DNA from: a virus | Lineage: Duplodnaviria; Heunggongvirae; Uroviricota; Caudoviricetes | Direction: 5' to 3' (one strand) | Length of the DNA stretch: 5,124 nt | Virus record (IMG/VR): IMGVR_UViG_2585427739_000007 | Shown here: positions 1 to 5,124 of the stretch, piece after piece | How the letters are laid out: each line of letters starts with the position of its first letter | How positions within the stretch are numbered: position 1 is the stretch's first letter | Notes under the pieces: generated by a model | Seen by the model: only the letters and a program-made list of their open reading frames with translations | Databases searched by the model: none | Told to the model about the DNA's origin: nothing | Translations under genes and position numbers: made by a program

Positions 1-285
1 TTCATTTTCCATCGTTTTCTTGCCGAGCAGGCGCTGGAGTTCTTTAATCTGCTTCATGGCGGCAGCAAGTTCAGAGGCAGGAACAACCTGTTCTCCGGCG
101 GCGACAGCAGTAAGACTTCCTTCCTGGTATTGCTTACGCCAGAGAAATAACTGGCTGGCTGCTACACCATGTTGCCGGGCAACGAGGGAGACCGTCATCC
201 CCGGTTCAAAGCTCTGCTGAACAATTGCGATCTTTTCCTGTGTGGTACGCCGTCTGCGTTTCTCCGGCCCTAAGACATCAATCAT
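1..285 (-). CDS. insC: IS2 transposase OrfA (InsC), N-terminal 95 codons; 3' part lies outside the window
   Basis: ATG at 285..283 (minus). Translation [95 protein letters not shown] matches IS2 InsC as I recall it. It is absent from the ORF track because no stop codon falls in the window. Confidence 0.85.
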
Positions 286-376
286 CTGTTCTCCAATGAC
301 TAGTCTAAAAACTAGTATTAAGACTATCACTTATTTAAGTGATATTGGTTGTCTGGAGATTCAGGGGGCCAGTCTA
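1..376 (-). mobile_element. IS2 (IS3 family), left-end portion in inverted orientation; runs off the window start
   Basis: Reverse complement of 301-376 reads TAGACTGGCCCCCTGAATCTCCAGACAACCAATATCACTTAAATAAGTGATAGTC..., which I recognise as the IS2 left terminal inverted repeat and leader; the terminus is at 376. The adjoining orfA matches IS2 InsC. Confidence 0.85.
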
Positions 377-486
377 TAATGACCTTTTATCTTACCCTTA
401 AGATTTCAAGGATTTTGACTCATGGAAGAGTCCTTTTTATTTAAATTTCACATTCAGCGCTAAAAATAATCCGATTTAATATTAAT

Positions 487-984
487 CTACATCTGATATT
501 TTTTATCTCTTAAAGATTCATAAATCCGTTGACAAGTCACTCCTGCGATGTAGCGTTTGTCAGCAATTTCAGCATAAAGCTGAGCTTCTGCTGCAATATC
601 TCCGAGCATGTTGGTGAGCATTCCTTCGGCGGCTTTGGTTGTTTTGCCTCTGACGGCAGCGGCAAGATTTGCGGTATGCTGCGCTGCGTCAAGGCGTATG
701 GCATATTTTGTTGCTTCGGCACGCAGCTGGTTAACACTATCAGACAGATCAGCAGCCCTGGCAGAAATTTCAGCGGCTTTCTGTTGTGCATCTTTAACAG
801 CCTCATCACGGGATATAGTTCGCCCCTGTTCAATTATTCGAGCAGCAAATTGGACATTTACCTCTTGAGATAATTCGGCAGCATCACGCTCCGCCCATTT
901 TTTTTGCCATCCTCTGTCGCTCCAGACATTACCTACGACAAATCCTACCAACACGAGCAAAATCACCGTGAATATCTGATTCAC
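487..984 (-). CDS. Rz-like i-spanin (inner-membrane spanin subunit), 165 aa
   Basis: N-terminal transmembrane segment ([18 protein letters not shown]) followed by a charged, Ala/Gln-rich probable coiled-coil periplasmic domain. GTG start at 984 overlaps the endolysin TGA stop (GTGA coupling); a GGGGGA Shine-Dalgarno-like element sits ~7 nt upstream. It occupies the last position of the holin-endolysin-spanin order. Confidence 0.75.
537..806 (-). CDS. Rz1-like o-spanin (outer-membrane lipoprotein), embedded in the +1 frame of Rz; about 89 aa (alternative start at 791 gives 84 aa)
   Basis: Translation [63 protein letters not shown]... has a signal peptide with a lipobox-like LTSC and a proline-rich mature region. 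It lies wholly inside Rz at a +1 frame offset (984-806 = 178), the classic embedded-spanin architecture. Confidence 0.6.
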
Positions 985-1514
985 TGTTCTATCCCCCAGC
1001 AGGTTAATGCACTCTCCTGGTCACGCCGAATAACCTGACCGTAACAATTATTTGAACGAATGCGGCAATCACGTCCACCGTCCTTTATCCACCAGCGAAT
1101 CGCCTCGCATGCGCCTTTACGATCACCGGCATTAAGCCGCTTATAAAACGTCGACGGAAAACACTTACCAGGGCCAATGTTATAGGGACAGAATGACGCG
1201 ATACCGGCTTTCTGTGGCTCGGTCAGTGGAACTTTTATATTGCGCTCCACCCATGCCAGCGCCTTATCCCGCTCAATGGCGTTAACCTGGGCGCATTTTT
1301 CCTTCGACAGTTTCATTCCCGGAATAACAGGTTTACCGTCCACCATCGTTGCTCCCCGACAGATGGTCCATATGCCGGAGCCATCGCGGTATGCAGTGGT
1401 GTGATTCCCCTCTTTTTCATCCAGAAACTGATCGAGAATGTCAGGGGCAGGAGCACTGGCGGCAATCAGTGCCAGAACAGCGGCCGACAGGCTGTATCTG
1501 ATTTTTACGTTCAT
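981..1514 (-). CDS. SAR (signal-anchor-release) endolysin, GH24 T4-type lysozyme fold, 177 aa
   Basis: N-terminal weakly hydrophobic Ala-rich segment ([15 protein letters not shown]) typical of SAR domains, then the lysozyme catalytic spacing E-x8-D-x5-T ([16 protein letters not shown]). It follows a pinholin and precedes the spanins. It resembles cryptic-prophage lysozymes of the RrrD/RrrQ/R21 type, from memory only. Confidence 0.85.
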
Positions 1515-1627
1515 GGATATTTATCAGGATTTATCGGCTTCAAATCCCCGGATATGTTAAATCTTACCTCACCAGTGATGGGCACTGGCGGGAGGAGGAT
1601 GTCAATCTGATAAACACAGAGGCGACT

Positions 1628-2728: not shown

Positions 2729-2797
2729 TAGCTAAAAATATCGTATAATCTTACACTTCAAAAAATAACTTTATAAAATGCCATCACATCATATCTT

Positions 2798-3511
2798 CTA
2801 AGAAAATCTTGATAAATATTGGTGCGGAGGCACACCAAAATATCCTCTAAAAACACTTACAAAATATGATGCATTGTCATACCCGCATATTCCCGCCACC
2901 TTGCCGACAGTATGGTTACTGTAGATCAATAATCTTTGCGCCATCATCATTCGTTCTTCAAGAATTAATTTACTAAACGATAATCCTTCGTCTTTTAATT
3001 TTCTTTTTAACAAACTCTCGCTCATATATAATCTTGAAGATATATCACAAAGTCTCCATGACGCTGAGATATCCGAGTGAATAATAGCCTTAACTTTACA
3101 ACCTAAGCTATTAAGACTTCCGAACAAAAAACTTTGCACTATTTTCTCTGAAGATAAGACAGCAAGACATGCAAGTGATATTTGATTTCTAACTACATCC
3201 ACGGTTTTGCTATCACAATTCAAGCATGCAACCAAGTTCCTTAACAATGAAAAATCTTCACATTCTACTATCAAGTATGACGGATAAAACCTTCTTACAG
3301 AAAAAGGTGAGAGTGTGTAGTTTTTAAAGAAATCATTAACTGTTTTCTCCTCAATATCTACGATCATTAGATGATCTGTATTTGACGAAAAAAGATCTTT
3401 TAAATTGTATTCAATGAGGACAGCATTTCCTTTTTTAAACAAAATATCTTCTTTACCAATTCGGACACCAAACGAGTTCAACACCAAAATGATAGAACAT
3501 ATGTATGGCAT
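2798..3511 (-). CDS. AraC/XylS-family transcriptional regulator of the AppY/YdeO-like subfamily, 237 aa, in an AT-rich island
   Basis: C-terminal double helix-turn-helix signature (WRLCDISSRLYMSESLLKRKLKDEGLSFSKLI...GKVAGICGYDNASYFVSVFRGYFGVPPHQY). The N-terminal half resembles my recollection of DLP12 AppY (e.g. ILFKKGNAVLI and LMIVDIEEKTVNDFF segments). ATG at 3511 has an AGGTGG Shine-Dalgarno 5 nt upstream; the GTG at 3520 used by the ORF track is less likely. Base composition is strongly AT-rich relative to the flanks. Confidence 0.8.
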   Translation of the reverse strand: MPYICSIILVLNSFGVRIGKEDILFKKGNAVLIEYNLKDLFSSNTDHLMIVDIEEKTVNDFFKNYTLSPFSVRRFYPSYLIVECEDFSLLRNLVACLNCDSKTVDVVRNQISLACLAVLSSEKIVQSFLFGSLNSLGCKVKAIIHSDISASWRLCDISSRLYMSESLLKRKLKDEGLSFSKLILEERMMMAQRLLIYSNHTVGKVAGICGYDNASYFVSVFRGYFGVPPHQYLSRFS

Positions 3512-3926
3512 ATTATCCACCTGATATCATTGGGGTTACACCAGGTAAGTATAGGTGGAAAATCAATATTCGCCAGTTCAACAATAAGGAAAATCTCATT
3601 GCATCACAACTATAAAACCATGTGTTTAACTCACAAAAAACAAATCATTAAACTAATCTGTTATATTATAATAGCTGCGTGCAATAATAATATTATATGC
3701 TCTTTATATTCACTTGAAATATCTTCATATAAAACAGATTGAATAAAATCTTTTGGGGCTGGTATGTTTACCAACATTAAATTGCATCTCAATGTTTTCT
3801 TTAGCGTGAACAGGATTTTTATAAAAACTGACACTATGAGCATCATAGCGTAGTTTTTACGATTGTAAATATCCTGCATACAGGAACTCATCACTTTCAG
3901 ATGATATCGCATACAGTTAATTCACC
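3512..3926. other. AT-rich non-coding leader upstream of the AraC-like gene, abutting the IS3 insertion point
   Basis: Very AT-rich with many TATAAT-like hexamers on both strands and no convincing ORF. It probably holds the regulator's promoter and is a plausible nucleoid-protein (H-NS-type) binding region. Its right edge is the IS3 junction. Confidence 0.4.
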
Positions 3927-3991
3927 TGATCTTACCCAGCAATAGTGGACACGCGGCTAAGTGAGTAAACTCTCAGTCAGAGGTGACTCAC

Positions 3992-4291
3992 ATGACAAAA
4001 ACAGTATCAACCAGTAAAAAACCCCGTAAACAGCATTCGCCTGAATTTCGCAGTGAAGCCCTGAAGCTTGCTGAACGCATCGGTGTTACTGCCGCAGCCC
4101 GTGAACTCAGCCTGTATGAATCACAACTCTACAACTGGCGCAGTAAACAGCAAAATCAGCAGACGTCTTCTGAACGTGAACTGGAGATGTCTACCGAGAT
4201 TGCACGTCTCAAACGCCAGCTGGCAGAACGGGATGAAGAGCTGGCTATCCTCCAAAAGGCCGCGACATACTTCGCGAAGCGCCTGAAATGA
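3992..4291 (+). CDS. insE: IS3 transposase OrfA (InsE), 99 aa
   Basis: Translation [99 protein letters not shown] matches IS3 InsE; helix-turn-helix plus leucine-zipper-like region. GAGGTG Shine-Dalgarno upstream of the ATG at 3992; the GTG at 3983 in the ORF track is probably not used. Confidence 0.85.
4254..4258 (+). other. Candidate programmed -1 ribosomal frameshift motif (AAAAG) for the IS3 OrfAB fusion
   Basis: AAAAG lies near the 3' end of insE, with insF in the -1 frame. IS3-family transposases are produced by -1 frameshifting and the IS3 site has been reported as an A-AAG-type motif (from memory). No downstream structure was verified. Confidence 0.4.
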
Positions 4292-5124
4292 AGTATGTCT
4301 TTATTGAAAAACATCAGGCTGAGTTCAGCATCAAAGCAATGTGCCGCGTGCTCCGGGTGGCCCGCAGCGGCTGGTATACGTGGTGTCAGCGGCGGACAAG
4401 GATAAGCACGCGTCAGCAGTTCCGCCAACACTGCGACAGCGTTGTCCTCGCGGCTTTTACCCGGTCAAAACAGCGTTACGGTGCCCCACGCCTGACGGAT
4501 GAATTGCGTGCTCAGGGTTACCCCTTTAACGTAAAAACCGTGGCGGCAAGCCTGCGCCGTCAGGGACTGAGGGCAAAGGCCTCCCGGAAGTTCAGCCCGG
4601 TCAGCTACCGCGCACACGGCCTGCCTGTGTCAGAAAATCTGTTGGAGCAGGATTTTTACGCCAGTGGCCCGAACCAGAAGTGGGCAGGAGACATCACGTA
4701 CTTACGTACAGATGAAGGCTGGCTGTATCTGGCAGTGGTCATTGACCTGTGGTCACGTGCCGTTATTGGCTGGTCAATGTCGCCACGCATGACGGCGCAA
4801 CTGGCCTGCGATGCCCTGCAGATGGCGCTGTGGCGGCGTAAGAGGCCCCGGAACGTTATCGTTCACACGGACCGTGGAGGCCAGTACTGTTCAGCAGATT
4901 ATCAGGCGCAACTGAAGCGGCATAATCTGCGTGGAAGTATGAGCGCAAAAGGTTGCTGCTACGATAATGCCTGCGTGGAAAGCTTCTTTCATTCGCTGAA
5001 AGTGGAATGTATCCATGGAGAACACTTTATCAGCCGGGAAATAATGCGGGCAACGGTGTTTAATTATATCGAATGTGATTACAATCGGTGGCGGCGGCAC
5101 AGTTGGTGTGGCGGCCTCAGTCCG
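4288..5124 (+). CDS. insF: IS3 transposase OrfB (InsF, DDE integrase domain), truncated by the window end
   Basis: Translation begins [36 protein letters not shown]... and matches IS3 InsF. The ATG overlaps the insE stop (ATGA) in the -1 frame. It is absent from the ORF track because no stop codon occurs before 5124. Confidence 0.85.

Follow-up and report, generated by a model that had tools for sequence, protein, structure and literature searches.

The stretch of viral DNA analyzed here (IMG/VR record IMGVR_UViG_2585427739_000007, Caudoviricetes), which we call the window at its full length of 5,124 nucleotides, carries a complete phage-21-type lysis cassette and an AraC-family regulator gene, bracketed by parts of two insertion sequence (IS) elements, IS2 on the left and IS3 on the right. 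Over its full length the window is identical at 5,123 of 5,124 positions to the genome of Escherichia coli NT1F25, a strain from pig (NZ_CP075472.1). Plain coordinates below refer to the window, and coordinates prefixed L001, L006, and L009 refer to the loci of E. coli NT1F25, REL606, and CUWW10, respectively. The IS2 junction and the left and right IS3 junctions were recovered as continuous matches in NT1F25 only, among the 5,426 complete E. coli genomes that served for all junction and segment counts. The 3.55-kb segment that separates the two IS elements is at least 80% covered in 295 of these genomes and gives a match over some part of its length in 5,172. The sole mismatch between the window and NT1F25, at position 4504 (T in the window, C in NT1F25), falls in a leucine codon of IS3 orfB and is synonymous; the window may derive from another assembly version or from a sister strain.

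All genes of the lysis cassette lie on the minus strand, and their closest relatives include genes of two phages recorded as isolates, 2H10 (a classified species) and PhiR63_1 (host recorded as E. coli ECOR13), with which window positions 377 to 2636 share 98% DNA identity. The holin gene (essQ, 2392-2607) encodes a 71-amino-acid class II holin, or pinholin, of the phage 21 type, which matches PF04971 (“Bacteriophage P21 holin S,” E = 3e-34) across profile positions 1 to 63 of 64 and also matches phrog_9876 and phrog_20. Its N terminus, MKSM, provides dual starts at Met1 and Met4 with Lys2 between them, the arrangement from which class II holins of the P21 S family are made as holin and antiholin forms. 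By hydropathy, the first transmembrane domain is weakly hydrophobic and the second (about residues 36 to 54) strongly so. The protein is identical to its counterparts in 2H10 and in E. coli REL606 at 66 and 69 of 71 residues, respectively.

The endolysin gene, rrrQ (981-1514), encodes a family 24 lysozyme of 177 amino acids (PF00959, E = 3e-24) with the catalytic motif E35-8aa-D44-5aa-T50, and the protein is identical at all 177 positions to those of 2H10 and PhiR63_1. Its homologs include the phage 21 lysozyme (PDB 3HDE/3HDF) and RrrD (4ZPU), with both alignments beginning at residue 31. By hydropathy, residues 9 to 23, which precede the catalytic E35, form a hydrophobic stretch with many Ala and Ser residues, and this fits a putative signal-anchor-release domain of the sort that would pair with a pinholin. 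The inner membrane spanin Rz (rzpQ, 487-984; 165 amino acids) has a hydrophobic N-terminal anchor and matches PF10721 (DUF2514, E = 2e-38) and phrog_312 (“Rz-like spanin,” E = 3e-58); it is identical to the 2H10 protein at 165 of 165 residues and differs from that of PhiR63_1 at one. Embedded in rzpQ in another frame is the gene for the outer membrane lipoprotein spanin Rz1 (rzoQ, 537-791; 84 amino acids; phrog_11621, “Rz-like spanin,” E = 2e-8), whose lipobox reads L-T-S-C with Cys23 and whose 84 residues are all identical in 2H10 and PhiR63_1. With both frames open, an anchored Rz and an embedded Rz1 lipoprotein constitute a two-component spanin.

Between holin and endolysin sits an open reading frame (ORF) of the YdfR family (1836-2387; 183 amino acids), comprising DUF1327 (PF07041, E = 3e-42) and a C-terminal extension; phrog_2091 covers residues 1 to 183 of 183 (E = 8e-112). 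The annotation pipeline PGAP labels this gene a pseudogene with a missing C terminus (112 codons). The 183-codon frame is open, is annotated as a 552-nucleotide coding sequence in phages 2H10 and PhiR63_1, and is identical to that of PhiR63_1 at 183 of 183 residues. Because isolated phages have the same 183-amino-acid ORF, the pseudogene label is probably wrong, an artifact of comparison with the 103-amino-acid YdfR of K-12. Neither frameshifts nor internal stops were found in the lysis genes. An earlier note on this DNA, made from the window alone, had taken the dual-start holin, the endolysin, and both spanin frames to be intact, and the family matches and the identity to phage proteins bear this out. 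Pseudogene decay of the lysis genes was considered as well and is ruled out by their identity to isolated phages.

The same note had described the cassette as orphaned, with no Q antiterminator in the window. No ORF of the window matches a Q family, just as the note had said. Past the far end of IS3 (L001 25184), the 5′ part of a ybgA-like gene comes first, then a blc lipocalin gene in the opposite orientation, and then Q. This Q gene (L001 26212-26589, minus strand) lies outside the window, is intact, and encodes a Q21-family protein of 125 amino acids (PF06530, E = 7e-51) that is homologous to Q21 (PDB 6P18) and identical at 123 of 125 residues to the Q protein of the isolated phage IdasGreatGrand. 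It lies 1,027 bp past the end of IS3, on the strand of the lysis genes and upstream of them, and the reading of an orphaned cassette without Q is therefore an effect of the window edge.

The 155-bp interval from the Q stop codon to blc matches that of IdasGreatGrand at 152 of 155 positions. On the late strand, 99 bp downstream of the Q stop, this region has a hairpin followed by a run of T residues (L001 26113-26090; −14.9 kcal/mol, z = −3.5). It is here that the late promoter pR′ and the terminator tR′ are expected, and the region very probably holds them. The order Q, blc (antisense), ybgA-like gene (960 nucleotides), AraC-like gene, and S is uninterrupted in phage IdasGreatGrand and in E. 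coli NT1N31, and the distance from Q to S is 3,014 bp in IdasGreatGrand, 3,142 bp in NT1N31, and 3,604 bp in NT1F25. The earlier note had named one arrangement that would speak against its own reading, namely, intact Q and pR′ just beyond IS3 with matching target duplications in an otherwise complete prophage. The larger part of this arrangement was found, since Q is in place and pR′/tR′ very probably are, without a matching duplication and in a prophage that is incomplete.

In NT1F25, the segment lies inside a lambdoid prophage with a truncated ydfJ at one end and int/xis-rspB at the other, and this ydfJ-rspB location is the Qin site. Within the prophage it is flanked by cspI, ynfQ, ynfN, and gnsB in one direction and by dicB and ydfD in the other. 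Terminase and tail-tip genes persist only as fragments, the head genes are gone, and three IS elements (IS1, IS2, and IS3) are present. The ydfJ/rspB site, the dicB/ydfD and cspI/gnsB cargo, and the lack of morphogenesis genes mark this as a Qin-type prophage. We conclude with high confidence that the window is the promoter-distal part of a late operon leader together with a complete phage-21-type lysis cassette, belonging to a Qin-like defective lambdoid prophage in which the native late control (Q) is still attached beyond IS3. One half of the earlier proposal, that of a cryptic prophage remnant with intact lysis genes, thus holds; the other half, that the IS elements uncouple the cassette from Q and pR′, is not supported, with Q intact beyond IS3.

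The two IS elements have different histories. The left-end portion of IS2 occupies positions 1 to 376 (minus strand; PF01527 HTH_Tnp_1, E = 1e-19), and its terminal sequence, ...GGGGGCCAGTCTA, ends at 376, exactly 110 bp from the Rz stop codon at 487, as had been noted. From its start at 285, IS2 insC/orfA reads along the minus strand and continues past the window edge. The complete element measures 1,331 bp (L001 19046-20376) and is flanked by a 5-bp direct duplication, TAATG, one copy of which is at 377-381 in the window and the other at L001 19041-19045. Since TAATG occurs on both sides and the corresponding site in REL606 is empty, IS2 is a simple insertion that entered downstream of the cassette, in the interval from rzpQ to cspI.

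IS3 begins at 3927, precisely 415 bp from the ATG of the AraC-like gene (3511), again as previously given, and fills the window to 5124 on the plus strand. Its left end reads TGATCTTACCC..., and it matches PF01527 and the rve integrase core domains, with orfA at 3992-4291 (plus strand) and orfB from 4288. The full element is 1,258 bp long (L001 23927-25184), so that its final 60 bp lie beyond the window. The transposase genes of both elements point away from the cassette, a further observation of the earlier note that we could confirm. That note had also suggested that target duplications be sought from the adjacent flanks, TAATG at 377-381 and ACC at 3924-3926. Both flanks read as it had given them, and the search gave a match on the two sides of IS2 and none for IS3, where ACC faces GGC. 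The absence of a target duplication sets this IS3 copy apart from a simple insertion.

The left flank of IS3 consists of the last 10 nucleotides of the ybgA-like gene (DUF523/DUF1722). This remnant (3917-3926, minus strand), comprising the stop codon and the last 7 nucleotides, aligns to L006 14656-14665 in REL606 as well as to the intact gene in IdasGreatGrand and NT1N31; the remainder has been lost next to IS3. The right flank, GGCAGCCCTATAGCC, is uninterrupted target sequence as in IdasGreatGrand. Relative to REL606, IdasGreatGrand, and NT1N31, the ybgA-like gene lacks 795 to 806 bp beside IS3. In the simplest history, IS3 first inserted in the ybgA-like gene, and a deletion next to the element then removed about 0.8 kb; this later deletion would account for the missing target duplication. 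IS2 and IS3 thus represent two unrelated, independent events.

Between the ybgA-like remnant and the holin lies the AraC-family regulator gene (2798-3511, minus strand; 237 amino acids), which matches PF12833 (E = 3e-16), PF00165, and, over its full length, phrog_1450 (E = 1e-96). Its product resembles YdeO, GadX, and HilD. We rejected naming it after any of these, as all NCBIfam matches fell below the cutoff, including the best of them (YdeO, 112 bits versus a cutoff of 348 bits). The gene occupies the same position in several lambda-like phages at 77 to 86% identity; it is 85.6% identical to the gene in this position in IdasGreatGrand and 77% identical to those of lambda-like phages. Together with its 415-bp upstream spacer (window 2600-3926), it has a G+C content of 30 to 36%, compared with 45 to 52% for the lysis genes. 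It is an AT-rich late-region cargo gene, or “moron,” for which low G+C content is typical; stx of Stx phages and similar morons are likewise low-G+C cargo between Q/pR′ and holin. Like AppY, PatE, and PsrA/B, it is an AraC-family regulator encoded by a prophage, distinguished by a protein that scores below every curated NCBIfam cutoff. The titles of published studies name AppY, PatE, and PsrA as prophage-encoded regulators.

Pfam searches of the small ORFs in the AT-rich spacer at 3530-3742 (plus strand) and 3661-3912 (minus strand) and of the upstream extension of the holin returned nothing significant, so that no hidden Q gene or regulator resides there. The holin, YdfR, Rz, Rz1, and Q fell into no curated NCBIfam family, and a scan of the window with Rfam at gathering thresholds returned zero matches. 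A consensus scan located a terminator-like hairpin at 2708-2729 (minus strand; −11.3 kcal/mol, z = −2.5) in the gap that separates the stop codon of the AraC-like gene from the start of the holin gene; the sequence after it is TTTTTCTTTTT. If this hairpin acts as a terminator, transcription from the AraC-like gene's own promoter would be expected to end before S unless antiterminated.

Upstream of Q, the NT1F25 prophage has a deletion in its immunity region. Compared with REL606, NT1F25 lacks 816 bp (L006 23344-24159; junction at about L001 30366), comprising the first 124 nucleotides of a cro-like gene, the whole DicA-like repressor gene, the start of a DUF1391 gene, and the intergenic regions between them. 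A 3-bp microhomology, GTA, marks the junction, and dicB and ydfD are kept downstream of it. The deleted intergenic regions are where the divergent early promoters should lie. With these promoters presumably gone, Q would have no native route to induction, and an uncoupling of the cassette is more likely to have occurred here than at the IS elements. The 816-bp deletion probably also explains why the cassette would be silent in an NT1F25-type host, and in such strains the cause of silencing is better sought in the immunity region than at IS2 or IS3.

We propose the following arrangement for late expression. Along the late strand, the order would be Q, pR′/tR′, blc (antisense), the ybgA 5′ fragment, IS3 (antisense), the AraC-like gene, the terminator hairpin, S, ydfR, R, and Rz/Rz1, with the pinholin predicted to be made in two forms, S71 and S68, from its dual starts. 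Given that native late control appears to be physically attached, as a Q21-family Q and its downstream promoter/terminator region 1.0 kb beyond IS3, expression of the lysis genes should need Q-modified RNA polymerase. Polymerase modified by Q ignores intrinsic and Rho-dependent terminators over many kilobases, so that IS3 would lengthen the leader by 1.26 kb without insulating the cassette.

Several points weigh against this interpretation. A consensus promoter scan downstream of Q yielded weak sites only, in numbers not above those in shuffled sequence; no promoter can therefore be claimed in that region, and pR′ is unmapped. The loss of early promoters in NT1F25 is deduced from the deletion of intergenic DNA and not from mapped promoters. 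Readthrough of an antisense IS3 is an expectation drawn from general knowledge of Q proteins. Finally, given the 1-base difference from NT1F25, the source of the window may be another strain, whose flanks could differ, although among the complete genomes the junctions of both IS elements are found in NT1F25 alone.

An alternative is that the cassette is functionally orphaned after all, with IS3 and the adjacent deletion blocking late transcription from pR′ and leaving S-R-Rz/Rz1 unreachable by Q. There are indeed 1,258 bp of foreign, antisense-transcribed DNA between Q and S, 0.8 kb of the original leader has been lost, and IS elements are in general classically polar on ordinary transcription. 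We nevertheless hold this to be quite improbable. Q and the region downstream of it have been preserved intact and differ little from their counterparts in an isolated phage, Q-type antitermination resists both intrinsic and Rho-dependent terminators, and in viable phages of this kind Q-modified polymerase must already traverse about 3.0 kb of cargo on its way to S, with an antisense gene and terminator-like hairpins in it, compared with 3.6 kb here. The notion that the segment between IS2 and IS3 is a mobile, composite-transposon-like unit carrying lysis genes draws on the bracketing of the cassette by two IS elements and on nothing else. The flanking elements differ in kind and in their ends, only one genome has the exact junctions, IS2 is flanked by a TAATG duplication of its own, and the cassette is syntenic in REL606, PCN061, and NT1N31, which are without IS2 and/or IS3. 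The IS2 duplication and this synteny led us to reject a composite transposon, whose hallmarks the locus lacks, and we regard such a unit as next to impossible.

It is also conceivable, if unlikely, that the cassette has been domesticated, being expressed at a low level independently of Q from a host-controlled promoter for purposes of envelope turnover, vesicle release, or biofilm formation. A precedent among lysis operons of defective E. coli prophages is the S-R-Rz/Rz1 module of DLP12, which has been reported to be controlled by a Q-type antiterminator, RpoE, and Hha, to respond to stress, and to modulate vesicle production (PMC7918800). Consistent with domestication, the protein sequences are perfectly conserved in an otherwise wrecked prophage, and 295 of the 5,426 genomes hold at least 80% of the segment. 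Recent acquisition or recombination with phages would explain the identity to phage proteins just as well, however, and a terminator-like hairpin stands just upstream of S. Moreover, the window has 10 promoter-like sites versus 8.6 expected from shuffled sequence, so that no host-controlled promoter can be claimed in it.

Insertion of IS3 into the ybgA-like gene is not unique to NT1F25. We found IS3 at no fewer than six different positions in this 960-bp gene in six strains (L006 15472-16729, L008 3687-4944, L010 3865-5122, L011 3699-4956, L009 4057-5314, and L001 23927-25184), with the transposase always antisense to the late operon. Four of the six copies have their own 3-bp duplications (TAT, AGT, TAT, and CCT). 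The two copies that lack one are those of NT1F25, with its adjacent deletion, and CUWW10, where an apparent IS3-mediated inversion has left Q on the other strand. In all, 1,136 genomes have the ybgA-like gene, mostly in intact form, and for that reason the six sites, while worthy of note, are not shown to be statistically unusual. Their recurrence could reflect a hot spot or repeated selection. We speculate, very tentatively and with considerable doubt, that bacteria repeatedly select IS3 insertions, with the deletions and inversions that follow them, because these damp or lengthen the leader of a lethal lysis operon; if so, such selection would mark one step toward a tamed prophage. The same cassette in CUWW10 has an endolysin gene truncated by IS1 next to ydfJ (L009 1457-1702), and the distal arm of the prophage is gone; this is a truly destroyed cassette.

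The closest known system is Qin itself (essQ-ydfR-rrrQ-rzpQ/rzoQ in K-12, with a variant in the B strains REL606 and BL21), which has the same ydfJ-to-rspB site, the same neighbors, and the same PGAP gene names. The Qin copy of REL606 is 99.2% identical over window positions 377 to 3926 and also has IS3 in the ybgA-like gene. It differs in having no IS2 and in that its own IS3 entered 8 bp away as a simple insertion, flanked by a TAT duplication and with the 3′ 0.8 kb of the ybgA-like gene kept. Besides REL606, about 60 genomes, including many from laboratory strains of E. coli B, share this independent insertion without a deletion. Qin of the K-12 type is more distant, matching 45% of the segment at about 90% identity, and its interval from Q to S holds cold-shock genes in place of blc-ybgA-AraC. 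The cold-shock-gene layout is seen in phages 2H10 and PhiR63_1.

The cassette resembles that of phage 21 in its P21 S-family holin with MKSM, in its Rz1 nested in Rz, in a Q homologous to Q21, and in a lysozyme homologous to R21 (3HDE) whose N-terminal hydrophobic segment has the same length ahead of the catalytic Glu. It differs from phage 21 in that the lysozyme is distant from R21 (E = 4e-16), Rz is of the DUF2514 type, and a YdfR-family ORF and an antisense ORF of 86 amino acids are inserted between S and R. DLP12 of K-12 (essD-rrrD-rzpD/rzoD) is similar as a defective lambdoid prophage that has kept an intact lysis cassette, while its prophage, integration site, and endolysin and spanin alleles are different. 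In DLP12, the cargo gene nmpC, disrupted by IS5, lies between quuD and essD and is a parallel to the IS3-bearing ybgA-like gene. Derivatives of lambda that no longer depend on their own Q arise by acquiring the Q-S-R module of a cryptic prophage. Qin was named for Q-independent derivatives of lambda (PMC8835842; Kaiser 1980 as cited in PMC6379469). Ever since those recombinants, E. coli has been known to harbor defective lambdoid prophages whose Q-S-R-Rz modules stay functional while IS elements and deletions erode the prophage. The locus is a Qin-family defective prophage with a phage-21-type lysis cassette and represents known biology without departure from it. Its relevance lies mainly in correct annotation, that is, in recognizing the absence of Q as an edge effect, the two IS elements as separate events, and the pseudogene call for ydfR as dubious.

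Two minor features remain. The homology block common to 2H10 and PhiR63_1 stops at 2636, just upstream of the holin ribosome-binding site, and marks a mosaic boundary. Between ydfR and R, antisense to the late operon, is the small ORF of 86 amino acids mentioned above (1628-1888, plus strand), which overlaps the 3′ end of the YdfR-family ORF by 53 nucleotides. It matches phrog_2572 over its full length (E = 2e-52), is annotated by PGAP as a hypothetical protein (WP_072008041.1), and is open and about 98% identical in 2H10 and PhiR63_1, though unannotated there. A GC-rich hairpin inside the 3′ part of the YdfR-family ORF (1907-1938) folds on both strands (−14.6 kcal/mol, z = −3.6 on the plus strand; −18.8 kcal/mol, z = −3.2 on the minus strand) and has a T run on the plus strand; from these properties, it is likely the terminator of the 86-amino-acid ORF.

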